This document shows, piece after piece, positions 11,907 to 61,813 of a stretch of DNA of 64,000 nucleotides. Position 1 is the first letter of the stretch; every line of letters starts with the position of its first letter. The stretch is taken from positions 35,717 to 99,716 of the forward strand of contig JBBTUY010000004.1 in assembly GCA_038063515.1 (NCBI GenBank), in the 5' to 3' direction. The notes beneath the pieces are model-generated. The model ran no database searches. It had not been told where the DNA came from and worked only from the letters and a program-made list of their open reading frames with translations. A program made the position numbers and the translations under genes. The DNA is from Patescibacteria group bacterium (lineage in GTDB: Bacteria; Patescibacteriota; Minisyncoccia; Phycocordibacterales; UBA9973).

Positions 11907-13880
11907 ATGAAGCAAAAAACAACAAACAGACTGCAAGGGGTGATATCCATATCTTCTAAAGGCACAGGATACGTAGCCATAGATCAAAATAAAGATAAGG
12001 GTAATGATCCAGAAATAGACTACAAGCATTTAAACACTGCCCTGCACGGGGACACAGTAGAGATAGTCCTCCACCCAAAAGGTCATGGTAGGCAGACAGC
12101 TGAAGTAAGTAAAATAATAACTCGAGCAAAAATGAGCTTTGCGGGTGTGCTCGAGCCCGTCTTCGCCGAGGCTTCGGCGGGCAAGGAAACTGATAAAAAT
12201 ATTTTTTTTGTTAAACCTGATGATACGAAAATGTATACGGATATTCTTGTAGCTAAAGAGGATTTAAACAATGCAAAAATAGGACAAAAGGTTTTTGTAG
12301 AAATAGTTTCATGGACTGATCCACGTAAAGCACCAAAAGGACGCATAGTGAAAGTCCTCGGTAAACCAGGAGAGAACAATGCTGAAATGAATGCAATAGT
12401 TTTAGAAAAAGGATTTGATACAAATCTCCCTCACAATGTAGAAGATGAAGCCAAAGCCATAAAACTTCGTGGCATAAAAAAAGAAGACTACGAGGGACGC
12501 AAAGATTTTAGACAAACTCTGACCTTCACAATAGACCCCTTTGATGCAAAAGATTTTGATGACGCTATTTCATTTAAAGAAGTAGGTGACCCCGCCAAGG
12601 ACGGGGTAAATTATGAAGTGGGTATACACATAGCAGATGTATCGTATTATGTTTTGCCTCAAAGTGCATTAGACGAAGAAGCTGGCGACCGCACAACTTC
12701 TGTATACTTAGTGGATAGAACGATACCCATGCTTCCAGAAGTACTTTCAAACGATCTATGCAGTCTAGTGCCAAATAAAGACAGACTGGCAATGAGTGCT
12801 GTTTTCATCGTAGACAAAAATGCACAAATAAAAAATGAATGGTACGGACGTACTGTGATAAATTCACAAAAAAGATTTACTTACGAAGAAGCGGAAGTTT
12901 CCATAAAAAAAAGTGGTACTCCCCTCCACAAAGAATTAACAATCTTAAACAATCTAGCGAAAAAATTAAACACGGAAAGATTTGAAAAAGGTGCGATATC
13001 CCTAGAACAAGAAGAAGTAAAATTTGTATTAGACAAAACTGGATTTCCTATTAAAGTCGTAAAAAAAGAGCGAGGAGACTCAAATAAATTAATAGAAGAG
13101 TTTATGCTCCTCGCAAACAGGCGTGTGGCAGAGATGCTTTCAAAAGGCTTAAAGAAAGACAATATAAAGTTTATATATCGCGTACACGACAATCCAAGCA
13201 AAGAAAAAATGGCAGATCTCGCATTCTTTTTAAAAAGCTTAGGACATAAGGTAAGCTTAAAGGACGGTATCATACCTACTCGTGAAATAAACAATTTACT
13301 TAAAAGCCTCAAAGGTAAAAATGAAGAAAACACAGTCGAGCGTGCAGTGGTACGAAGTATGGCAAAAGCCGTATATTCTACAAACAACATAGGACACTAC
13401 GGTCTCGCATTTGAATATTACACACACTTCACTTCCCCCATCCGTAGATACCCAGACATAATAGTACACAGAATACTAAACGAGTACTTAAAAGGTGCAA
13501 AGGTTGATACAGAAAAAATAGGTCAACTAGAAGAAATAGCCAAGGTCTCCTCGGTACAAGAAAAGTATGCTTCTGATGCAGAGCGTGCTTCAATAAAATA
13601 CAAACAGGTAGAGTACATGTCTAAAAAGAAAGGAGAGCTTTTTACTGGTGTGATAAGTGGCATCACAGAATGGGGTATGTATGTGGAAGAAAAAGAAACA
13701 AAGTGTGAGGGATTAGTAAAAGTCCGAGACATGAATGATGACTTTTACACATTTGATGAGAAGAAATTACAGCTCGTAGGACAAAAGAAGAAAAAGAAAT
13801 ACAGACTTGGAGATGAAGTTAGGATAAAAGTTAAGGAAGTTGATTTAGAAAAGAAAAATATTGATTATATTTTAGTATGA
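11907..13880 (+). CDS. rnr: Ribonuclease R / RNase II family 3'-5' exoribonuclease
   Basis: 657 aa; N-terminal cold-shock/OB domain, RNB catalytic domain (HYGLAFEYYTHFTSPIRRYPDIIVHR), C-terminal S1-like domain. Confidence 0.85.
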   Translation: MKQKTTNRLQGVISISSKGTGYVAIDQNKDKGNDPEIDYKHLNTALHGDTVEIVLHPKGHGRQTAEVSKIITRAKMSFAGVLEPVFAEASAGKETDKNIFFVKPDDTKMYTDILVAKEDLNNAKIGQKVFVEIVSWTDPRKAPKGRIVKVLGKPGENNAEMNAIVLEKGFDTNLPHNVEDEAKAIKLRGIKKEDYEGRKDFRQTLTFTIDPFDAKDFDDAISFKEVGDPAKDGVNYEVGIHIADVSYYVLPQSALDEEAGDRTTSVYLVDRTIPMLPEVLSNDLCSLVPNKDRLAMSAVFIVDKNAQIKNEWYGRTVINSQKRFTYEEAEVSIKKSGTPLHKELTILNNLAKKLNTERFEKGAISLEQEEVKFVLDKTGFPIKVVKKERGDSNKLIEEFMLLANRRVAEMLSKGLKKDNIKFIYRVHDNPSKEKMADLAFFLKSLGHKVSLKDGIIPTREINNLLKSLKGKNEENTVERAVVRSMAKAVYSTNNIGHYGLAFEYYTHFTSPIRRYPDIIVHRILNEYLKGAKVDTEKIGQLEEIAKVSSVQEKYASDAERASIKYKQVEYMSKKKGELFTGVISGITEWGMYVEEKETKCEGLVKVRDMNDDFYTFDEKKLQLVGQKKKKKYRLGDEVRIKVKEVDLEKKNIDYILV

Positions 13881-15799
13881 ATCCCGAACATAACAATAAA
13901 AGAAAAGAAAAGGTACACATGGCATTTTGGCTTGTTGTTTTTGTCGTAATAGGAATATACATTAGCTCCACTTCTTTTTCTTTATTTAGAGACAAAGATA
14001 TTTCTCCTGGTACAAACCTCGCTCTGGTATCAGAGTCAAACAAAGAAGGAAATGCTCTGCGGAAATACTCATATGTAAACAAAGACCTTATTGGCTCACC
14101 TAAAGTTTCGGCAAAAGCTTTTATAGTTGGAGATTTAAAAACGGGAGAAATAATACTTGCTAAAAATGAAGAGTCTAAGTTCCCCATTGCATCTACTTCA
14201 AAGCTCATGACAGCACTTGTCACCAAAGAACTTTCCACACCGACAGATGTAGTAAAAGTGAGCAGTAGAGCACTAGCGACATATGGTACAAACGGAGGAC
14301 TCAGATTAGGAGAGAAAATAAAAACACTAGACCTCGTATACCCCATGCTCCTTGAGTCTAGTAACGATGCGACAGAATTAGCCGCAGAGTACTTCGGCAG
14401 AGATACTTTCTTAACAAAGATGAATCAAAAGGCACAACAATTACAAATGACGCACACCTCCTACAAAGATCCAAGTGGTCTCTCTCCACAAAATATTTCC
14501 ACAGCCGGAGACCTTTTCAAACTCGCAGGATACATAACACAAAATAAAAATGACTTATTTGAAATAACAACAAAGAGAAGCTACTCCGACAAAGTTCACA
14601 GCTGGTCAAACATAAGTCAATTTTTAGGACAAGAAGGATACCTAGGAAGCAAGAGTGGCTACACAGATGAAGCAAAGCAAACAGTCGTCTCTATTTTTAA
14701 TTTACCTTTAGGTGAGAGTGGCTACCGTCCTATTGGGATTACTCTCCTTCAAAGTTATGATAGAAAAAAAGACGTAGAAACTATTTTAAAATATTTAAAA
14801 AAGTATGTGTATTACGGAGGCACAGTAGATGCAAATACTGACTGGGTAAAAGAAAAGCTGGGGATTCCAGACATACGTGAACCTGATTTCTTAAACCTAG
14901 CATTTCTTGGAGACATGATGCTCGACCGAGGAGTCAGGAATTCAGTAGTAAAAAATTTCAACAATGACTACTCTGCCCTTTTCGGAAAAGTAAAAGATTT
15001 GAGTGACACAATGAAAAAGTCAGACATAACTTTTGCCAACCTAGAGGGTCCTGCTTCCGACCAAGGCGCTGATCTTAAAAATTTATATTCTTTTAGAATG
15101 AATCCTGGTATTGTACCTGCACTCAAAGGTTCTGGTATCAGTATCGTATCTATAGCAAACAACCACGTCGGCGACTGGGGACGTCCTGCGTACAGAGACA
15201 CGCTAGGCAGACTCGCAGAAAATGAAATCCTCTACACAGGAGGAGGATACACAAGCATAGAAGCAGAAAAGCCAGCCATCATAGAAAAATACGGAATGAA
15301 AATAGGATTCCTTGGATTCTCAGACGTAGGACCAAACTGGATGGAAGCTTCGATAGAAAATTCAGGATTATTGCTCGCAAACAATCCTCGTTTTGATGAA
15401 ATAGTTCAAAATGCTTCAAAACAAGTAGACTACCTTGTAGTATCATTTCACTTTGGAGATGAGTACAAAACGATACACAACAAAAGGCAAGAATACCTAG
15501 CACACAAAGCAGTAGATGCTGGAGCTAAGATAGTCATAGGTCACCATCCACATGTAGTACAGGACACGGAAGTTTACAAAAATAGTTTTATCGCATATTC
15601 TCTCGGAAACTTTATCTTTGACCAGAAATTCTCTGTGGCCACCATGCAAGGCATGCTCTTAAATATTAAACTAAATAAAGACGGTAATATGACTATTAGA
15701 AAAGACATAGTGAAATTAAATTCTGCATTCCAGCCTGACAGCCTAACCAAAGGCAAAGAAGAAAATATATTATTTAAAGAAGTTAAACCAACACCATAA
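13877..15799 (+). CDS. Fusion protein: N-terminal D-alanyl-D-alanine carboxypeptidase (peptidase S11, PBP5-like) plus C-terminal CapA/PgsA-type (PGA_cap) metallophosphoesterase domain.
   Basis: SxxK (ASTSKLMT), SxN (ESSND) and KSG (KSGYTD) motifs in the N-half. C-half has FANLEGP, NNHVGDWG, FHFGDEY and GHHPHVVQ blocks typical of CapA. Confidence 0.7.
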   Translation: MNPEHNNKRKEKVHMAFWLVVFVVIGIYISSTSFSLFRDKDISPGTNLALVSESNKEGNALRKYSYVNKDLIGSPKVSAKAFIVGDLKTGEIILAKNEESKFPIASTSKLMTALVTKELSTPTDVVKVSSRALATYGTNGGLRLGEKIKTLDLVYPMLLESSNDATELAAEYFGRDTFLTKMNQKAQQLQMTHTSYKDPSGLSPQNISTAGDLFKLAGYITQNKNDLFEITTKRSYSDKVHSWSNISQFLGQEGYLGSKSGYTDEAKQTVVSIFNLPLGESGYRPIGITLLQSYDRKKDVETILKYLKKYVYYGGTVDANTDWVKEKLGIPDIREPDFLNLAFLGDMMLDRGVRNSVVKNFNNDYSALFGKVKDLSDTMKKSDITFANLEGPASDQGADLKNLYSFRMNPGIVPALKGSGISIVSIANNHVGDWGRPAYRDTLGRLAENEILYTGGGYTSIEAEKPAIIEKYGMKIGFLGFSDVGPNWMEASIENSGLLLANNPRFDEIVQNASKQVDYLVVSFHFGDEYKTIHNKRQEYLAHKAVDAGAKIVIGHHPHVVQDTEVYKNSFIAYSLGNFIFDQKFSVATMQGMLLNIKLNKDGNMTIRKDIVKLNSAFQPDSLTKGKEENILFKEVKPTP

Positions 15800-15803
15800 A
15801 GTC

Positions 15804-16982
15804 ATGGAAAATTCAAAGCCTCACTCATTGTGGATGGTTTGTACTATTTTGATAGTGGTGTTAGTAGTGCACGGTGCATGGACTAGAGATAAATTAATAT
15901 ATACGAGAATTTTAAATAAGGCACAAATACTACTTTCCACAAAAGAAGACACAACTAAAGAAGATGCTGCTATCCTTGCGAGCATAATAAACAATACTGA
16001 CGACAAGAGAAACACAGCACCCACCACAGAAGTACATAAAACAAAAGACACGATACACATAGGCTTTGTGGGTGACATAATTCCTGGTATTGATGCATAT
16101 CCTAATATGTTTTCAGATATTACTTCATACACAGAGAAGCCTGAGGTAATGATAGCTAACTTTGAGGGAGCAGCGACTGATTCTATATTTTCAAAATGTA
16201 AAATAGATTCTAAGAATTGTTTTTCATTTAATGGAAATGATATTTTCTTAAAATTACTACGAGACGCCTCATTTGATGTGTTAAATGTAGCCAATAACCA
16301 CTTTAATGATTACCGAGAAGTTGGACAAATAGACACAATAAGAAACATACGAGAAATAGGGCTTATACCAAGTGGCATGAAAGGTGAAGTAACTTATATA
16401 ACAAAAAATAATATCAAGATAAGTCTGGTAGGCTTCTCTAATTATTCATGGACAAATGATTTAAATAGAACTAATGAGGTGGCAAATTTAATACAAGAAG
16501 CAGATAAAGATGCGGACATTGTGGTGGTAGTATTCCATGGTGGCGGAGAAGGTGCTAGCTATTCTCATACACCAAGAGAAGTGGAATGGTATTTAGGAGA
16601 AAACAGAGGGGATCTTCGAGCCTTTGCACACAACGCCATAGACTCTGGAGCCGACCTAGTACTAGGTTCTGGTCCTCATGTTCTTCGTGGCATAGAATGG
16701 TATGAAAACAAGTTAATTGCTTACTCACTCGGAAACTTTGCTATGGCAGATGGAATACTAACCACAGGCACATTAAAAAATTCAGGGATGCTAAATGTAA
16801 CATTAGATAAACATGGCTCTATAATTTCTGGAAACATAGAATCTTTTGAAATAGATAGATACGGCATACCCCGCCCTGACTTAAGTAATACTGCAATTAC
16901 AATAATAAACAATCTCTCACAAAGTGACTTCGGAGAGCAAGGAGTAAAATTAAATCCTCTCGGAGAAATTAAAATAAAATAA
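15804..16982 (+). CDS. capA: CapA/PgsA-family capsule-synthesis-like metallophosphoesterase (second paralog). N-terminal signal anchor.
   Basis: IANFEGAATD, ANNHFNDY, VVVFHGGGEGAS, GSGPHVLRGIEWYENKLIAYSLGNF blocks. 4 nt after the preceding fusion gene. Confidence 0.7.
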   Translation: MENSKPHSLWMVCTILIVVLVVHGAWTRDKLIYTRILNKAQILLSTKEDTTKEDAAILASIINNTDDKRNTAPTTEVHKTKDTIHIGFVGDIIPGIDAYPNMFSDITSYTEKPEVMIANFEGAATDSIFSKCKIDSKNCFSFNGNDIFLKLLRDASFDVLNVANNHFNDYREVGQIDTIRNIREIGLIPSGMKGEVTYITKNNIKISLVGFSNYSWTNDLNRTNEVANLIQEADKDADIVVVVFHGGGEGASYSHTPREVEWYLGENRGDLRAFAHNAIDSGADLVLGSGPHVLRGIEWYENKLIAYSLGNFAMADGILTTGTLKNSGMLNVTLDKHGSIISGNIESFEIDRYGIPRPDLSNTAITIINNLSQSDFGEQGVKLNPLGEIKIK

Positions 16983-34962: not shown

Positions 34963-36207
34963 CTAATGCATTTTCATCTCTTCTAGCATATTTTTATCAC
35001 TTTCAATCTTTTTAAATATCTCTGGGTTCTCATCCCCTGTAACTTCAAGTACTGCCCACGCACCTTTATTCATTCGTGCGAGAGCGTGATCCACGAGTAA
35101 GTATTTACCAGGGACATCAACAGTAAACTCTACAATGCTTGCTCCACCTGGGAGAACAGCGGTTGCTTGAGTATTATGCTCCATCGCACCTCCAATACTC
35201 GCATTTGGATACACGGTATCAAAAATTTCACCAATTACATGGAAAGATGATATTAGGTTCACGCCACCATTACCGACATACATACGAATTCTATCTCCCA
35301 CTTTTGCTTGCATTCGTGGTGTTGTTTCAATGCGACCATTGAAAGTTACATAATTAGGCTGTCCGTCCAAGAGTGCATCAGGGTCAAATGGTACCAGTCC
35401 TTTTTTTCCAAGTTGCCCCATAGTGTATAGCTCTCCTTGCATAACATAAAATTCTTTATCAACTTCTGCAAATCCTTCTTTTGGATCAACTAAAATCATT
35501 CCGTATTGTCCATGTGAATTGTGAGTTGAAACATTGGGCATCGCACAATGATATATATAAAGACCTGGATTTAATGCTTTCCATCTAAATGTTTTTGTTT
35601 CTCCAGGTGCCACATGGGTAACTGACGCTCCGCCTCCTGGGCCTGTAACTGCATGCAGATCTATATTGTGATCATGTAGGCTTGACGGGTCATTTGTCAG
35701 TGTTAATTCTACCGTATCTCCCTCGCGTATACGAAGCATTGGACCAGGAACTTGTTTATTGTATGTCCAGTAGTTGAAATAAATTCCAGGGGATATCTCT
35801 CCGAGGACTTCTTGTGCAGTCAAACTAATACGCACAATACCGTCTGCGTCAGGTGCTTGTGGTTTTTCTGGAACAACTGTCGGATCTGCACCAATATCTG
35901 CGACTTTATCGAAACGATTTTCATATCTAAAAAAATCTATAATTTTAGCAAATGGGATAGATGGAGGGAGTCCACCTGGAGCGTGTGAATGCACAAATGC
36001 TGGCATAGCAAAATCAGGAGGATAAGTTTTGTTTGCCACTAGTCCTGTGAAAAAAGCAATAACAATTAGAGCGACTGGGATGTATAGCCATTTTTGCTTA
36101 AAAATTGAATGGAAATGCCCTTGTTTCCATACATATCGCACAATTACGATAAAGGCTATAAATCCTACTATTCCAGATATCATTTCAAAAATAAGGTATT
36201 TGAACAT
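34963..36207 (-). CDS. nirK: Copper-containing nitrite reductase NirK (two-domain multicopper oxidase) with an N-terminal transmembrane anchor
   Basis: HNIDLHAVTGPGGGASVTHVAPGETKTFRWKALNPGLYIYHCAMPNVSTHNSHGQYGMILV contains type-2 Cu His ligands and type-1 Cu C/H/M ligands. Two N-terminal TM helices. Confidence 0.85.
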   Translation of the reverse strand: MFKYLIFEMISGIVGFIAFIVIVRYVWKQGHFHSIFKQKWLYIPVALIVIAFFTGLVANKTYPPDFAMPAFVHSHAPGGLPPSIPFAKIIDFFRYENRFDKVADIGADPTVVPEKPQAPDADGIVRISLTAQEVLGEISPGIYFNYWTYNKQVPGPMLRIREGDTVELTLTNDPSSLHDHNIDLHAVTGPGGGASVTHVAPGETKTFRWKALNPGLYIYHCAMPNVSTHNSHGQYGMILVDPKEGFAEVDKEFYVMQGELYTMGQLGKKGLVPFDPDALLDGQPNYVTFNGRIETTPRMQAKVGDRIRMYVGNGGVNLISSFHVIGEIFDTVYPNASIGGAMEHNTQATAVLPGGASIVEFTVDVPGKYLLVDHALARMNKGAWAVLEVTGDENPEIFKKIESDKNMLEEMKMH

Positions 36208-53543: not shown

Positions 53544-53570
53544 CACTAGCAAGAACGGTTCTTACTAGTG
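53544..53570. repeat. REP-like imperfect palindrome cactagcaagaacggttcttactagtg at the 3' end of the RAYT gene
   Basis: Same core (ctagcaagaacggttcttgctag) recurs at 54284..54312. Confidence 0.75.
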
Positions 53571-54257
53571 TTTGCTTTGATCTTCATCATTTTCAAAAGA
53601 AAGATAACTATCTATAAAATCTTCAAAATCATTGTCGTAAGAAAAATATTCCGGAAAAGCTTCTTTATTTAAAATATTACTTTCACATCTATCTATCCCT
53701 GTATAGTCAATGTAACTAGAATACTTATACTTTTTTAAAAAATCTTGCCAAGTATTTGGATTTTGTTTATCGATCAGTTCTTGCCATCCAGAAAATTGTA
53801 AATCCAATGGATTCAAAGCTATATATCCAAAGAGGTGTTTTAAATATATATCTTCAGGGATATGTTTTGATTTAAATAATCCTCCAAATAAAGATCCTGT
53901 TCTTTGATATTTTATATTAAAATACATTGAATAACCGACACCTAGTTTTCTCATAAATTTAGTAATTCCACCTTCAACCTCTTCTTTAAGAAGAATATGA
54001 AAATGATTCGGCATGAGACACCATGCACCAATAGACACAAGTGCATTACTCCTTTTGTAAGAAAATATTTCTTCATAACTTTTATGTAAAATATTTATAA
54101 GATTATCGAGCCTTATAGATTCATCGGAATTAGCCACATAAAGTAACATGATGAAACGATTGTAATCGTGAGTGGATTTAAAAATAACCCTCTTGTCTAT
54201 CCCCCTATTATAAATATGATAAAATTCTCCTGGAACAAAAATATCTTTTCTTAACAT
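53565..54257 (-). CDS. REP-associated tyrosine transposase (RAYT) / IS200-IS605-family Y1 HuH transposase
   Basis: HuH motif MPNHFHILL, catalytic Tyr in YIALNP, EFYHIYNRG N-terminal block. Start chosen at ATG 54257 (MLRKDIF...); the track ORF uses an upstream TTG. Confidence 0.75.
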   Translation of the reverse strand: MLRKDIFVPGEFYHIYNRGIDKRVIFKSTHDYNRFIMLLYVANSDESIRLDNLINILHKSYEEIFSYKRSNALVSIGAWCLMPNHFHILLKEEVEGGITKFMRKLGVGYSMYFNIKYQRTGSLFGGLFKSKHIPEDIYLKHLFGYIALNPLDLQFSGWQELIDKQNPNTWQDFLKKYKYSSYIDYTGIDRCESNILNKEAFPEYFSYDNDFEDFIDSYLSFENDEDQSKH

Positions 54258-54283
54258 AAGAAAGAGTTTACCAAATTCGGGCT

Positions 54284-54323
54284 CCTCTAGCAAGAACGGT
54301 TCTTGCTAGAGGATTGCTAGAGG
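54284..54323. repeat. REP-like palindrome cctctagcaagaacggttcttgctagagg plus a partial tandem copy (attgctagagg)
   Basis: 14-bp arms. Lies between the pilM stop and the RAYT start. Confidence 0.75.
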
Positions 54324-55495: not shown

Positions 55496-56170
55496 ATGGC
55501 CTTTTTGAACACTATATTAAATGGAGTCTTAAATTTAATCTTTCCCATGAAATGCATAGACTGTGGAATTTCAGGATCAAATTTTTGCAATACATGCATA
55601 GGTCAGGCTCCGATCTCAGACAGAGAAGTGTCAAGTTGGATATACCCGACATTCGACTATAGACACCCACCGGTCAAGAAAGCCTTGTGGCTAATAAAAT
55701 ACAAAAGCAAGAAGAGCTTAGTGAAAATATTTGCCGAAATAATGTATGACAGGATGATAGCAGAGCTTGCAGACTTGTCTCAATTAGAAAATTTTAATAA
55801 TTCCATCTTGATACCCATTCCCCTTTCAAAAAAAGGACACAGAGAGAGAGGATACAATCAAGCAGAATTACTTTGCGAAGAATTAATAGAGATAGATAAA
55901 AATACAAATTTTAAACTAGGAAAAAATATTCTAGTAAAGACAAAAGACACAGGGCACCAAGCTCACATTAAAAACAAAGGCGAAAGAATGAAGAATATCA
56001 TTGGTGCTTTTAGTATTAAAGATTTAGATAAAAATATAAATTTGATAAAAAATAAAAATATAATCCTAATAGATGACATAACCACTACAGGAGCTACGCT
56101 CGGTGAAGCAAAGAAAGTGCTAAAAAACGCTGGTGCAAGAAAAATAATAGCTTTTACTATAGCACATTGA
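55496..56170 (+). CDS. comF: ComF-family competence protein (ComFC-like phosphoribosyltransferase with an N-terminal zinc finger)
   Basis: CIDCGISGSNFCNTC zinc finger; PRTase motif IILIDDITTTGATLGEAKKVL. Start set at MAFLNTIL; divergent from pilM. Confidence 0.75.
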   Translation: MAFLNTILNGVLNLIFPMKCIDCGISGSNFCNTCIGQAPISDREVSSWIYPTFDYRHPPVKKALWLIKYKSKKSLVKIFAEIMYDRMIAELADLSQLENFNNSILIPIPLSKKGHRERGYNQAELLCEELIEIDKNTNFKLGKNILVKTKDTGHQAHIKNKGERMKNIIGAFSIKDLDKNINLIKNKNIILIDDITTTGATLGEAKKVLKNAGARKIIAFTIAH

Positions 56171-56183
56171 TATAATAACCTCT

Positions 56184-57395
56184 ATGTCACATTGTAAAGA
56201 TTGCGAACCAGCACAAGAAAGTCATTTTGTAGCATATACCTCAGTCGTACTAGGATGGATAGATGAGCCATTTTTTGGACTCATGGAAAAAATGTTTAAA
56301 AATACAGCAGAAGTAATGGCGGACAAGCTGTCTATTCCATTTTTTGAAACCATGGTCTTCCTCGGACTCGGTAGATACTCATACAGGCCAGAGAAAAAGG
56401 ATACATACAGAACTAAATGTTTCTGGGATGAAGCAAGAAGACGAAACATTCAAATGCGTGAATTTCATCTCGGACCCATAGGTGACGCATTCGTGGCGAC
56501 CTTCACATACAAAGACGGTGACAAAGAAAAAAAGAAGACGCTGCTTTTTGATGGCTTACCTCGCCCTGGACTCAAAGACTCACCTTCTCTTAAATGGATG
56601 GACAACAAAGGCATAATGAAAACAAAATTCAAAGAAGCAGGTTTGCCTATAGCAGATGGGGGTGTGACATGGACGAAAAGTCAGGCAATAAAAATTTTTA
56701 ATCGCATCCAAAAGCCCATCATCACCAAGCCGAATTTAGGATCTAGAAGTAGACATACGATGATCCACATAAACACCCTCGAGGATTTGATGGTGGGATT
56801 TAAAAAAGCCAAGAAACTCTCTCCTCTAGTCATAGTCGAGGAAGAACTTCGCGGATACTTGTTTAGAGGAACACTAGTAAATCAAAAAATTGTAGCAGTC
56901 ATAAAACGTGACCAACCAGAAGTCACCGGTGACGGTATTCATACTCTTCAACACTTGCTCGATGAAGAAAACAAAAGACCAGAAAGACAAGGCCCGATAT
57001 ACCACATCATACCCATAGACAAAGAAGCAGAAATAGAGCTAAAAAGACAAAATGTAAAGTTAGACGACGTAATAGAAAAAGGTAAAGTAATAACTTTCTC
57101 CCAAAAGACAAGTAGGAGTTGTGGAGGTACTACTACAGATGTCACAGATATAATTCATCCTGATAACAAAGAAATGCTCGAAAACGTAGGCAAACTTTTA
57201 AATGACCCACTTGTGGGCGTAGATTTTATAATAGAAGATATAACCAAATCATGGAAAGAAGAACAACATTCGGGCATCATAGAGTGCAACAGTCTGCCGT
57301 TTATAGACCTGCACCACTACCCTCTCTTTGGTAAGCCAGTCAACGTAGCAGGAAAACTCTGGGATCTCGTACTACCCGAGTCGCATATAGACTAA
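56184..57395 (+). CDS. ATP-grasp enzyme resembling the N-terminal (aspartate-adding) half of cyanophycin synthetase CphA. No Mur-ligase half.
   Basis: Blocks NQKIVAVIKRDQPEVTGDGIHTLQHLL, TDIIHPDNKEMLENVGKLL and VGVDFIIEDITKSWKEEQHSGIIECNSLPF parallel the CphA ATP-grasp core. Confidence 0.55.
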   Translation: MSHCKDCEPAQESHFVAYTSVVLGWIDEPFFGLMEKMFKNTAEVMADKLSIPFFETMVFLGLGRYSYRPEKKDTYRTKCFWDEARRRNIQMREFHLGPIGDAFVATFTYKDGDKEKKKTLLFDGLPRPGLKDSPSLKWMDNKGIMKTKFKEAGLPIADGGVTWTKSQAIKIFNRIQKPIITKPNLGSRSRHTMIHINTLEDLMVGFKKAKKLSPLVIVEEELRGYLFRGTLVNQKIVAVIKRDQPEVTGDGIHTLQHLLDEENKRPERQGPIYHIIPIDKEAEIELKRQNVKLDDVIEKGKVITFSQKTSRSCGGTTTDVTDIIHPDNKEMLENVGKLLNDPLVGVDFIIEDITKSWKEEQHSGIIECNSLPFIDLHHYPLFGKPVNVAGKLWDLVLPESHID

Positions 57396-57886
57396 TTTTT
57401 CTCAAACATTATTTCAGAGTCTGGGTTGTATGCATCAGGATCCATGACTAAGTGAGAAGTGTATTTTTCTGATACAACGAAATCACCTAAGAATTTAAGG
57501 AATTCTTCCTTCCTTCCTTTCTTTCCTTTTTCTTCTAAATGCTCGAGGGGGTGAGCTTCAGGAGTAAATTCATAATGCCCCCTTATCTCTCCGTCACTAT
57601 ATACACGTAAGTGGTATTGATCTTGGAAATCATCTAATTTCCTCCAACTTAAAACCTGATCAGTGTCAGTCCATGCTATGAAATGATTCCCGAAACCCCA
57701 GCTCTCATGTAGGTGCTTCTTTAATTCTTCTAGGGTCTTGCCTTGTCTCAAATATCCTATGTGGTATTTCTGCCTTGAGCTGTCGTGATGAATGATACCC
57801 CACTTAAGTAGTGTTCTCTGCATAGGCAAGAAAAACCTGTATATATGATGCCAAGCCTTGTATTTCAATCTATCGAAAAAACTCAT
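57392..57886 (-). CDS. Hypothetical protein (164 aa, His/Trp-rich, no recognised domain)
   Basis: ORF only. Convergent with the ATP-grasp gene (4-nt overlap). Upstream neighbour is yhhQ. Confidence 0.35.
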   Translation of the reverse strand: MSFFDRLKYKAWHHIYRFFLPMQRTLLKWGIIHHDSSRQKYHIGYLRQGKTLEELKKHLHESWGFGNHFIAWTDTDQVLSWRKLDDFQDQYHLRVYSDGEIRGHYEFTPEAHPLEHLEEKGKKGRKEEFLKFLGDFVVSEKYTSHLVMDPDAYNPDSEIMFEKN

Positions 57887-58689: not shown

Positions 58690-58781
58690 TGGCGGAGCCG
58701 GACGGATTCGAACCGTCGAGGGGTTTTGAAGCCCCTGCCTCTTTAGCAAAGAGGTACGTTAGACCACTCTGACACGGCTCC
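58690..58781 (-). tRNA. tRNA-Ser (anticodon GCT). Type II; CCA encoded; the D-arm pairs poorly.
   Basis: Manual fold of the reverse complement: acceptor GGAGCCG/CGGCTCC, anticodon stem CCTCT/AGAGG with loop TTGCTAA, long variable arm AGGGGCTTCAAAACCCCT, T-arm GACGG-TTCGAAT-CCGTC, G73, CCA. Confidence 0.65.
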
Positions 58782-58862: not shown

Positions 58863-58952
58863 GGACAGATGGGTGAGTGGCTTAAACCAGCGGTTTACTA
58901 AACCGCCGTCCCCTTAAAAGGACCGTGAGTTCGAATCTCACTCTGTCCGCCA
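58863..58952 (+). tRNA. Type II Ser-like tRNA gene with an atypical anticodon loop (UUACUAA, apparent anticodon ACU); CCA encoded
   Basis: Manual fold: acceptor GGACAGA/TCTGTCC, D-stem GGT/ACC, anticodon stem GCGGT/ACCGC, long variable arm, T-arm GTGAG-TTCGAAT-CTCAC, G73, CCA. A34 is not expected in a bacterial tRNA-Ser. Confidence 0.55.
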
Positions 58953-61387: not shown

Positions 61388-61451
61388 TGATTAATTATAG
61401 ACCTTTCCAGGTAAATTGCAAAAACCATCCTTTTCTGATATGCTACTTCTA

Positions 61452-61753
61452 GCGGGATAGAGAAGAGGAATCTCGCAAGGCTCAGCGGTTTTTATATGGG
61501 CCCCCTCAGAAGAAACTTTGAGGTGTGCACTCGTCAAATTCGGAGAAATCCTCTCTGCCATCTGGTAGAAAGACAATTCCGAGCTAAATTTTCCAAGTAA
61601 TTGGAGATAAATGTGTAGAGACTAGATGATGAGCTCCTTAATTAAATTTATTTAAAAAGGAGATGGTATAGTCCAGACCACAAACATTTTGGTAGTGAAA
61701 ACTATAGTGGTAAAGCATAACCTTGAGACGGCCGTTCGATTCGGCCTCCCGCA
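61452..61753 (+). ncRNA. ssrA: Candidate tmRNA (ssrA): 5' GCGGGA pairs with 3' TCCCGC+A, and a canonical T-arm (GGCCG-TTCGATT-CGGCC) immediately precedes the 3' acceptor strand
   Basis: A tRNA-like 3' end with no matching 5' acceptor within 100 nt; the complement is about 295 nt upstream. Possible P2 pairing CAAGG/CCTTG. CCA not encoded. Tag reading frame not identified. Confidence 0.3.
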
Positions 61754-61813
61754 ACAAGATAGTGCCAAAACTAAAAGACAGAAATTTAAAGTTTAAATTT
61801 CTGTCTTTTAGTT

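Follow-up and report, generated by a model that had tools for sequence, protein, structure and literature searches.

We analysed a 64,000-nucleotide stretch of contig JBBTUY010000004.1 from a Patescibacteria group bacterium (hereafter the window, to which coordinates refer unless another contig is named). At 56184..57395 on the plus strand it carries an open reading frame (ORF) for a 403-amino-acid (aa) protein, which we assign to a 'CxxC-hairpin' family of stand-alone ATP-grasp carboxylate-amine ligases in the CphA-G/GshF clade. A second ORF, at 57392..57886 on the minus strand, encodes a His-, Trp- and Glu-rich protein of 164 aa, referred to below as the partner. The genes converge tail to tail and share 4 bp at their stop codons (CTAA on either strand). 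Identical proteins are on record in databases as AAB510_02620 and AAB510_02625, both hypothetical, from a metagenome-assembled genome (MAG) of Patescibacteria. Directly upstream of the ligase gene, across a gap of 13 bp, lies a gene for a ComF-type phosphoribosyltransferase (55496..56170, plus strand; TIGR00201 comF, E 2e-24; Pribosyltran, E 3e-8), which presumably starts at Met47 of the listed ORF. The ComF and ligase genes are probably co-transcribed, and ComF is syntenic context. The window is AT-rich (GC 0.33-0.41), and apart from the genes discussed here it holds mostly housekeeping and type IV pilus genes.

Both ORFs had been delimited correctly in a first-pass annotation made from the sequence alone, and the ATP-grasp motifs quoted there are indeed present in the ligase (VTGDG, residues 247-251; TDIIHPDN, 321-328; GVDF, 345-348; ECNSLP, 367-372). 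In profile searches the closest matches were the two cyanophycin synthetase models of NCBIfam, PRK14016 (E 5.3e-58, 196.9 bits) and TIGR02068 (E 1.6e-57, 195.2 bits). They cover residues 140-400 of the query only, corresponding to CphA positions 212-475 in a model of 871, and they fall short of the curated whole-protein cut-offs of 877 and 850 bits, respectively. The second-closest profile was that of GshF (PRK02471; E 8e-37, 127 bits against a cut-off of 425), matched in its ATP-grasp part only (model 485-754), and the third that of N-acetylglutaminylglutamine synthetase (TIGR03103; E 1e-29, 103 bits against 569). Similarity to the Ddl profile (E 5.7e-5, 22 bits against 243) and the RimK profile (E 9.7e-4, 18.6 bits against 143) was marginal and spanned about 100 residues each; RimK and LysX together gave E 1e-3 to 3e-4. 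The first-pass annotation had regarded a best match to Ddl or RimK as speaking against a CphA-type enzyme, and the best match is CphA. In Pfam only a sub-threshold match to DUF5748 was found (E 0.046, 14.6 bits against a cut-off of 25), and the family is therefore not represented there.

Searches against known structures led to the same relatives. With the ligase sequence as query, chains of CphA1 and CphA2 in the PDB were matched at E 1e-33 to 1e-28 and those of GshF at E 1e-19 to 1e-17. An AlphaFold2 (AF2) model built from 69 diverse homologs reached a pLDDT of 94.9 and a pTM of 0.92, and its top match in Foldseek was CphA2 (7ta5, E 3e-26). The CphA1 structures 7wae, 7txv and 7lg5 matched with TM scores of 0.66-0.70 (7wae, 0.70), and over CphA1 and CphA2 as a whole the TM score was 0.62-0.70 across approximately 335 aligned columns. 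GshF structures followed at TM 0.64, while LysX/ArgX, Ddl, RimK and PsnB were far weaker (E 1e-12 to 1e-8, TM 0.34-0.44). The likeness to cyanophycin synthetase is thus far beyond chance.

The common part is the ATP-grasp body (56374..57392, plus strand; residues 64-403), which comprises the small A sub-domain, the lid, the core and a CphA-type omega module with its large loop at residues 305-315. The G domain with its omega module is accordingly present. The Mur-ligase (M) domain is absent, as had been proposed at first: the ligase ends at residue 403, equivalent to position 475 of the 871 in the model, and has no Mur_ligase match in Pfam. Calling the protein the N-terminal half of CphA was nevertheless mistaken, because the CphA N domain (about residues 1-160) is missing too, the profile matches beginning only at model position 212-214; what the two proteins share is the G domain alone.

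The place of the CphA N domain is occupied by two features of the ligase's own N-terminus. The first is a Cys4-x2-Cys7-x6-His14 knuckle (56193..56225, plus strand; codons 4-14), for which the family consensus is CPDCGP..V.H. Down to 27% identity C4 and C7 are invariant, and H14 is found in 68 of 69 sequences. This pattern suggests a putative partial zinc site; a PDB profile search with residues 1-60 returned non-significant zinc-ribbon knuckles only. The knuckle runs into a hydrophobic helical hairpin (56223..56360, plus strand; residues 14-59, with helices at 14-38 and 41-59 according to the AF2 secondary structure, block pLDDT 81-93). The hairpin is family-specific and has no match in Pfam, the PDB or CphA. 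We considered whether it might be a transmembrane segment and rejected this, its maximum Kyte-Doolittle mean over 19 residues being 1.26.

Active-site residues were mapped by a HMMER alignment to Synechocystis CphA1 (SuCphA1), with residue roles taken from work on TeCphA1 and SuCphA1 (PMC9427784). K142, K182, E219, R228, D347, E367 and N369 of the ligase correspond to CphA1 K220, K261, E300, R309 (the Arg that holds the acyl carboxylate), D431, E450 and N452, and all seven are invariant in the 69 aligned sequences, which again extend down to 27% identity. Thus the set that characterizes the ATP-grasp superfamily, namely two phosphate-binding Lys, the ribose-binding Glu and three Mg2+ ligands, is complete. 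R242 (CphA1 R323) is not invariant in the family, albeit retained in the sub-clade of the window ligase. As judged from these residues, the protein is catalytically intact and almost certainly active. It belongs to a known kind of ATP-grasp enzyme, is closest to the G domains of CphA1 and CphA2, and probably joins a carboxyl group to an amine.

The substrate pocket is a different matter. In CphA1 the incoming L-Asp is bound by N394 and R458, and Gly456 stabilizes the oxyanion (PMC9427784). The ligase has S310, D375 and F373 at these positions. It further has R311 in place of L395, an Arg confined to its sub-clade, R188 in place of the P-loop His H267, and H191 in place of G270, the latter being invariant in the CxxC family. 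In a survey of 130 representatives of 50%-identity clusters, H191 was present in 92 of the 92 that bear the CxxC motif; among these, Phe or Tyr is the usual residue at 373, and Asp predominates at 375, with Asn or Glu in most of the others. Long multidomain relatives without CxxC have Gly or Cys at position 191 (18/18) and mostly Asn at position 310 (16/18). Cyanophycin or poly-Asp chemistry, the latter having been proposed in the first-pass annotation, is unlikely, because the residues with which CphA1 binds Asp and stabilizes the oxyanion are replaced. The reversal of charge at R458 would rather suggest an amine that has no alpha-carboxylate next to it or is positively charged. Such a nucleophile could, for example, be a polyamine, the head group of an amino-alcohol, or a side chain of the Lys or diamino kind.

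The family is large. A HMMER search of 1.84 billion cluster representatives retrieved 7255 proteins at E <= 1e-3 and 330 at E <= 1e-30, and full-length matches of approximately 400 aa extend down to about 30% identity. Some pipelines label these proteins 'D-alanine-D-alanine ligase-like' or 'cyanophycin synthetase'; genes of the CxxC ligase family should be annotated as neither. We found no description of the family in the literature searched. In GTDB species genomes there were 447 matching loci, and the counts of neighbouring genes given below refer to the best 80 of these, one per species. All 80 are from Patescibacteria (Nomurabacteria, Paceibacteria and others), with ligases 49-77% identical to that of the window. 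Among the more distant relatives, many of the long proteins (P0278, P0332, P0333, P0361, P0374) consist of tandem CphA-G-like ATP-grasp domains, apparently a different architecture; several of these long tandem proteins end in a putative acylphosphatase-type domain, going by the motif GKVQGVGFR.

We found a homolog of the 164-aa partner downstream of the ligase, on the opposite strand, in 75 of the 80 species, and three of the five misses lie at contig ends. The gap between the two genes is below 200 bp in 52 loci, while in 23 loci further genes (0.6-3 kb) intervene; the spacing of the pair stays within 3 kb despite insertions on either side. Adjacency also persists at greater distance, namely in a locus (L092) whose ligase has just 41% identity and whose flanking genes are not the same: here the partner (E 1e-46) is again convergent and overlapping. 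Moreover, two proteins among the cluster representatives, P0321 (553 aa) and P0326 (561 aa), consist of a full CxxC ligase followed by a C-terminal partner-like domain (phmmer E 1e-17 to 1e-18), and a metagenome scan yielded six further fusion contigs. In all eight fusion contigs (L004, L085, L094-L099) one uninterrupted reading frame carries both domains. At just 44.5% identity, P0321 and P0326 are too far apart for the fusion to be one recent accident. The 164-aa protein is therefore a genuine, conserved and sometimes fused partner of the ligase in these ultra-small Patescibacteria. Its ORF had been described at first as lacking any recognisable domain, which still stands, whereas its standing as a partner, evident from the 75/80 adjacency and the fusions, had been missed. 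In the lineage with the fused ligase we also noted short in-frame insertions with the peptide RGEGEG or GRGEGEG, which break up three unrelated proteins, AtpD, the fused ATP-grasp protein and GyrB (L094, 2630-4066 and 4995-6698; L085, 1821-3806) and which resemble a small repeat element entering coding sequence.

Partner homologs in the same clade are 65-78% identical, with many invariant His, Trp, Glu and Arg residues. Neither single-sequence nor profile searches gave a match in Pfam, NCBIfam, PADLOC or the PDB, a profile search for distant homologs listed close relatives only, and its AF2 model matched nothing in Foldseek at E <= 0.001. The model predicts an amphipathic N-terminal helix (residues 3-28, moment 0.61), then a beta-alpha-beta-beta-beta core and further helices. 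The core holds a conserved motif, QYH(L/I)R..D.E.R.H.E..PE..P..H, and the residues kept even in the fusions are Q39, W72, D74, R82, Q90, H92, R94, D98, E100 and H104, together with E106, E110, H116 and E119. In the model the conserved residues alternate on two adjacent strands, in a manner that may correspond to a metal- or phosphate-binding face of the sheet. An HxxEH inverzincin motif (H112-E115-H116) was considered and rejected, H112 and E115 not being conserved in the fused homologs. The C-terminus is variable in both sequence and length. Neither the partner nor the ligase has a predicted transmembrane segment, and both are predicted to be soluble.

The core gene order is PilM (minus strand), ComF (plus), ligase (plus) and partner (minus). 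The PilM/ComF/ligase part recurs in most of the 80 loci, with other genes inserted in about 17, and ComF is replaced by other genes where the ligase is at 37% identity. In about 17 of the 80 species a cassette encoding DedA/VTT, glycosyltransferase, alpha/beta-hydrolase and PAP2_C proteins directly precedes the ligase, the stop codon of PAP2_C often overlapping the ligase start. In 15 loci a gene for a HAD-type hydrolase follows the partner gene, and one locus adds a choline/ethanolamine kinase. These accessory genes hint at an envelope or head-group context. Beside distant ligases we also observed a small class-I SAM methyltransferase gene (L068, 7188-7739, minus strand; L088, 2000-2545, plus strand, for the pair L088/L089; L093, 7217-7705, minus strand). 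The three contexts are unrelated, the enzyme is membrane-anchored in two of the three, and in L093 it holds the convergent position taken elsewhere by the 164-aa partner. In the window we found no DedA, glycosyltransferase, hydrolase, PAP2_C, HAD, choline kinase or methyltransferase gene of the kind seen at these related loci.

Further relatives of the ligase have a different partner. A sister sub-clade of CxxC ligases has G242, G310 and N375, and its members (P0274, P0281, P0284, P0285, P0292, P0299) are fused N-terminally to a domain of approximately 450 aa, giving proteins of 720-860 aa. This domain has the motifs SFPRG and GGGFSQ, has no match in Pfam, NCBIfam or the PDB, and does not occur in the window. 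In one contig (L101) it is encoded by a separate upstream gene that overlaps the ligase start, and in another (L100) the partner of this approximately 450-aa type is convergent and lies downstream. A racemase-like gene (CntK_N/DapF-like) is located 3' of the ligase in L101. The stretches concerned are 432-1796 and 2996-3637 in L101 and 6311-6883 in L100. The sister sub-clade supports the picture of a CxxC ATP-grasp core that works with exchangeable partner proteins.

The reading that we favour, and hold to be rather probable, is that the window ligase is an active enzyme of the CphA-G/GshF clade and forms one half of a two-component carboxylate-amine ligase, the other half being the convergent 164-aa protein. 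What speaks for it directly is the homology, the complete set of catalytic residues, the changes in the pocket and the coupling of the two genes, including their fusion. By analogy to CphA1 and GshF, ATP would be clamped by K142, K182 and E219, with Mg2+ on D347, E367 and N369, and a substrate carboxylate held by R228 would be phosphorylated to an acyl-phosphate. An amine positioned under the loop of the omega module (S310, R311, S312) would then attack the acyl-phosphate to give an amide. The nucleophile would not be aspartate, and the product would not be poly-Asp and almost certainly not cyanophycin; our leading guesses for the substrates are an envelope-linked amine and a small soluble peptide. 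The partner would bind the ligase through its own amphipathic N-terminal helix and through the ligase's N-terminal hairpin and knuckle, and would either recognise the substrate or contribute a second catalytic site that binds metal or phosphate. A wider version of this idea, which we put forward tentatively and consider doubtful, would make the CxxC-hairpin ligases an unrecognised group of obligate two-component amide ligases, widespread in Patescibacteria, in which interchangeable partners of novel fold (the His/Glu-rich 164-aa protein here, the approximately 450-aa protein in the sister sub-clade) set the substrate and the amide product, in the envelope or as a metabolite, is specific to the symbionts. 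On this wider version a partner might, in addition, form one metal site together with the Cys2-His knuckle of the ligase.

Several observations weigh against our favoured reading. The ligase and partner genes are convergent and therefore cannot be co-transcribed, and no adjacent homolog of the 164-aa protein was found beside the distant family members L088 and L093. Within a close clade simple synteny would explain the adjacency. The conservation of the pair is also unremarkable: across species the median identity is 69.4% for the ligase and 66.3% for the partner, and the pilus protein PilM is equally conserved in the same species (68.8%). For that reason we rejected exceptional conservation as a sign of essentiality. 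The AF2 model of the partner is of moderate confidence (pLDDT 75.6) and the partner's role is purely what we infer, while our view of the ligase pocket derives from pairwise HMM alignments to CphA1 rather than from a superposed complex.

Taken furthest, these points would mean that the two genes are functionally unrelated neighbours held together by inherited synteny alone. Indeed, the genes do not share a transcript, the 80 species are close relatives in which PilM is 69% identical, and the cross-species identities of the two proteins correlate weakly (r = 0.36). We nevertheless consider this explanation very improbable, given that a fusion ORF occurs in eight contigs of a divergent lineage whose cluster representatives are 44.5% identical, that adjacency is kept at 41% identity among otherwise different genes, and that the pair stays within 3 kb even with genes inserted on either side. 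More improbable still is the original proposal, in which a poly-Asp-like backbone is the product of a truncated cyanophycin synthetase, perhaps with a separate Mur-ligase-like partner or with CapA. That the best matches in sequence and structure are the G domains of CphA1 and CphA2, and that R228 (R309) and R242 (R323) are retained in the sub-clade, would agree with it. The CapA (PGA_cap) paralogs that it invoked are real as well: one (13877-15799, plus strand) carries a Peptidase_S11 D-Ala-D-Ala carboxypeptidase domain fused to its N-terminus, in line with the fusion that had been stated, and the other (15804-16982, plus strand) follows it. They are located 40 kb from the ligase and outside the conserved neighbourhood, however, and we found no link between them and the ATP-grasp pair. 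In addition, both the polymer-anchoring N domain and the M domain are absent, the profile scores of 197 and 195 bits are far from the cut-offs, N394, R458 and G456 are replaced by Ser, Asp and Phe, and a scan that covered about half of the window ORFs of at least 120 aa detected no Mur ligase. In summary, the first-pass annotation was right about the enzyme class and the missing M domain, and wrong or unsupported as to the 'N-half', the poly-Asp backbone and the CapA link.

If the two-component reading is followed, the question becomes what the pair might make. A role in the cell wall or envelope is possible, though on balance we would not expect it: the ligase could add an amino acid or peptide to an amine of a peptidoglycan precursor or a membrane-linked molecule, such as a stem-peptide diamino residue or a phospho-amino-alcohol head group. 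There is a known analogue in the ATP-grasp D-aspartate ligase that builds enterococcal cross-bridges. The DedA/VTT-glycosyltransferase-hydrolase-PAP2_C cassette, the HAD gene after the partner and the one choline/ethanolamine kinase would all fit such a role, as would the strongly amphipathic N-helix of the partner together with the hydrophobic hairpin of the ligase, the replacement of R458 by Asp, which suits a nucleophile without an alpha-carboxylate, and the racemase-like gene adjoining a sister-clade member. However, neither the 64-kb window nor the majority of the species has these accessory genes, which may therefore have been inserted by chance at the border of an operon. Both proteins lack a transmembrane segment, and no linkage to mur, ddl or fem genes was found in the window. 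Somewhat less likely, in our view, is a small-metabolite synthetase, whose product would be a soluble compound resembling a di- or tripeptide (a thiol, an osmolyte or an amide of the cofactor type, for example), the partner performing the preceding or following step. GshF (E 8e-37, TM 0.64) and N-acetylglutaminylglutamine synthetase (E 1e-29) are the next-best families after CphA, the sister sub-clade with its approximately 450-aa domain ahead of the ATP-grasp mimics the two-ligase layout of GshF, and both proteins are predicted to be soluble. Yet neither type of partner domain looks like a known enzyme, glutamate-cysteine ligase included, no transporter or pathway genes are consistently linked, and biosynthesis in Patescibacteria is very limited. 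Quite improbable to us is a protein modification of the RimK, LysX or TTL type, in which residues would be joined to a carboxylate or amine of a protein and the 164-aa protein would serve as the target, an adaptor or a carrier. A structural relationship to LysX/ArgX and RimK can be detected (Foldseek E 1e-12 to 1e-9), LysX with its zinc-finger carrier LysW is a precedent for a two-protein ATP-grasp system, and the class-I methyltransferase stands beside three distant members. This idea sits poorly, however, with the marginal RimK/LysX profile similarity, with the C-terminus of the partner, which varies where LysW or S6 has a conserved acidic tail, and with the fusions, which place the partner domain within the chain of the ligase itself.

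Patescibacteria have tiny genomes with very few biosynthetic enzymes, and a ligase pair that is kept in hundreds of their species probably makes something that cannot be obtained from the host. The pair is also a tractable target, as it consists of two small soluble proteins with a high-confidence model for the ligase and clear mutational predictions. Its study could reveal a new amide-linked product or envelope modification, and could show how ATP-grasp enzymes of the CphA/GshF type are re-targeted by a swap of partner.

Lastly, we noted other features of the window. The CapA paralogs lie directly downstream of an RNase R gene (11907-13880). A 414-aa multicopper-oxidase protein (Cu-oxidase_3 and Cu-oxidase_2) is encoded at 34963-36207 on the minus strand in housekeeping surroundings. 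Between pilus-assembly genes and pilM, a 242-aa ORF (53565-54293, minus strand) has a weak match to an IS200-like Y1 transposase domain (PF01797, E 8e-7), and about 530 bp without a convincing ORF follow it. Two divergent tRNA-Ser genes (58863-58952, plus strand; 58690-58781, minus strand) lie between genes for a YhhQ-like transporter and a NUDIX protein; one has an ordinary GCT anticodon and the other an unusual ACT (A34). Finally, a 426-nt intergenic gap hosts a group I catalytic intron (Rfam RF00028, 63.9 bits, E 7e-14) at 61481-61695 on the plus strand, within about 61451-61755. ARAGORN with introns allowed reports an interrupted tRNA-Met(CAT) with a 233-nt intron at this site, and some manual excisions give a tRNA-Ser(TGA) instead.

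Among known systems, the G domain of CphA1 (7lg5, 7wae, 7lgn) is of the same ATP-grasp sub-type, including the omega module and its large loop; its ATP and Mg2+ ligands are identical to those of the ligase, and the Arg for the acyl carboxylate is shared (R309, R228). CphA1 is, however, a protein of about 870 aa with N and M domains, whereas the 403-aa ligase has neither, carries the knuckle and hairpin where CphA1 has its N domain, reads GSRSRH in the P-loop where CphA1 reads DGNHGRG, and alone of the two is accompanied by a separate 164-aa partner. CphA2 (7ta5, 8fxh), the top match in Foldseek, is a shorter relative that uses only the chemistry of the G domain. At about 630 aa it has retained an N domain and, in degenerate form, an M domain, both of which are missing from the ligase, and it polymerises beta-Asp-Arg dipeptides, an activity that we do not ascribe to the ligase. 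The C-terminal ATP-grasp domain of GshF (3ln6, 3ln7; PRK02471), from the second-closest family, adds one amino acid to a peptide carboxylate, and the layout of a large N-terminal domain followed by ATP-grasp in the sister sub-clade resembles it; the glutamate-cysteine ligase domain of GshF is absent from the ligase and its fused relatives, and the P-loop and pocket signatures differ. N-acetylglutaminylglutamine synthetase (TIGR03103), the third-closest profile, is a dipeptide-forming ATP-grasp enzyme, but its system has a GNAT domain and a three-gene set, neither of which is found at the window locus.

Two further groups combine an ATP-grasp ligase with a small protein or peptide. LysX/ArgX with LysW and RimK with S6 act with a dedicated small protein, as we propose for the ligase, to which LysX/ArgX and RimK are only distantly related (Foldseek E 1e-12 to 1e-9, TM about 0.4). 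LysW carries a zinc-finger motif, whereas here the Cys/His knuckle is on the ligase and not on the partner, and the partner has no conserved acidic tail. Ligases of the graspetide type (PsnB/MdnC) are a distant structural match only (PsnB, E 7e-9, TM 0.38); in those systems short precursor peptides are encoded beside the ligase, while here a conserved globular protein of 164 aa takes that place.

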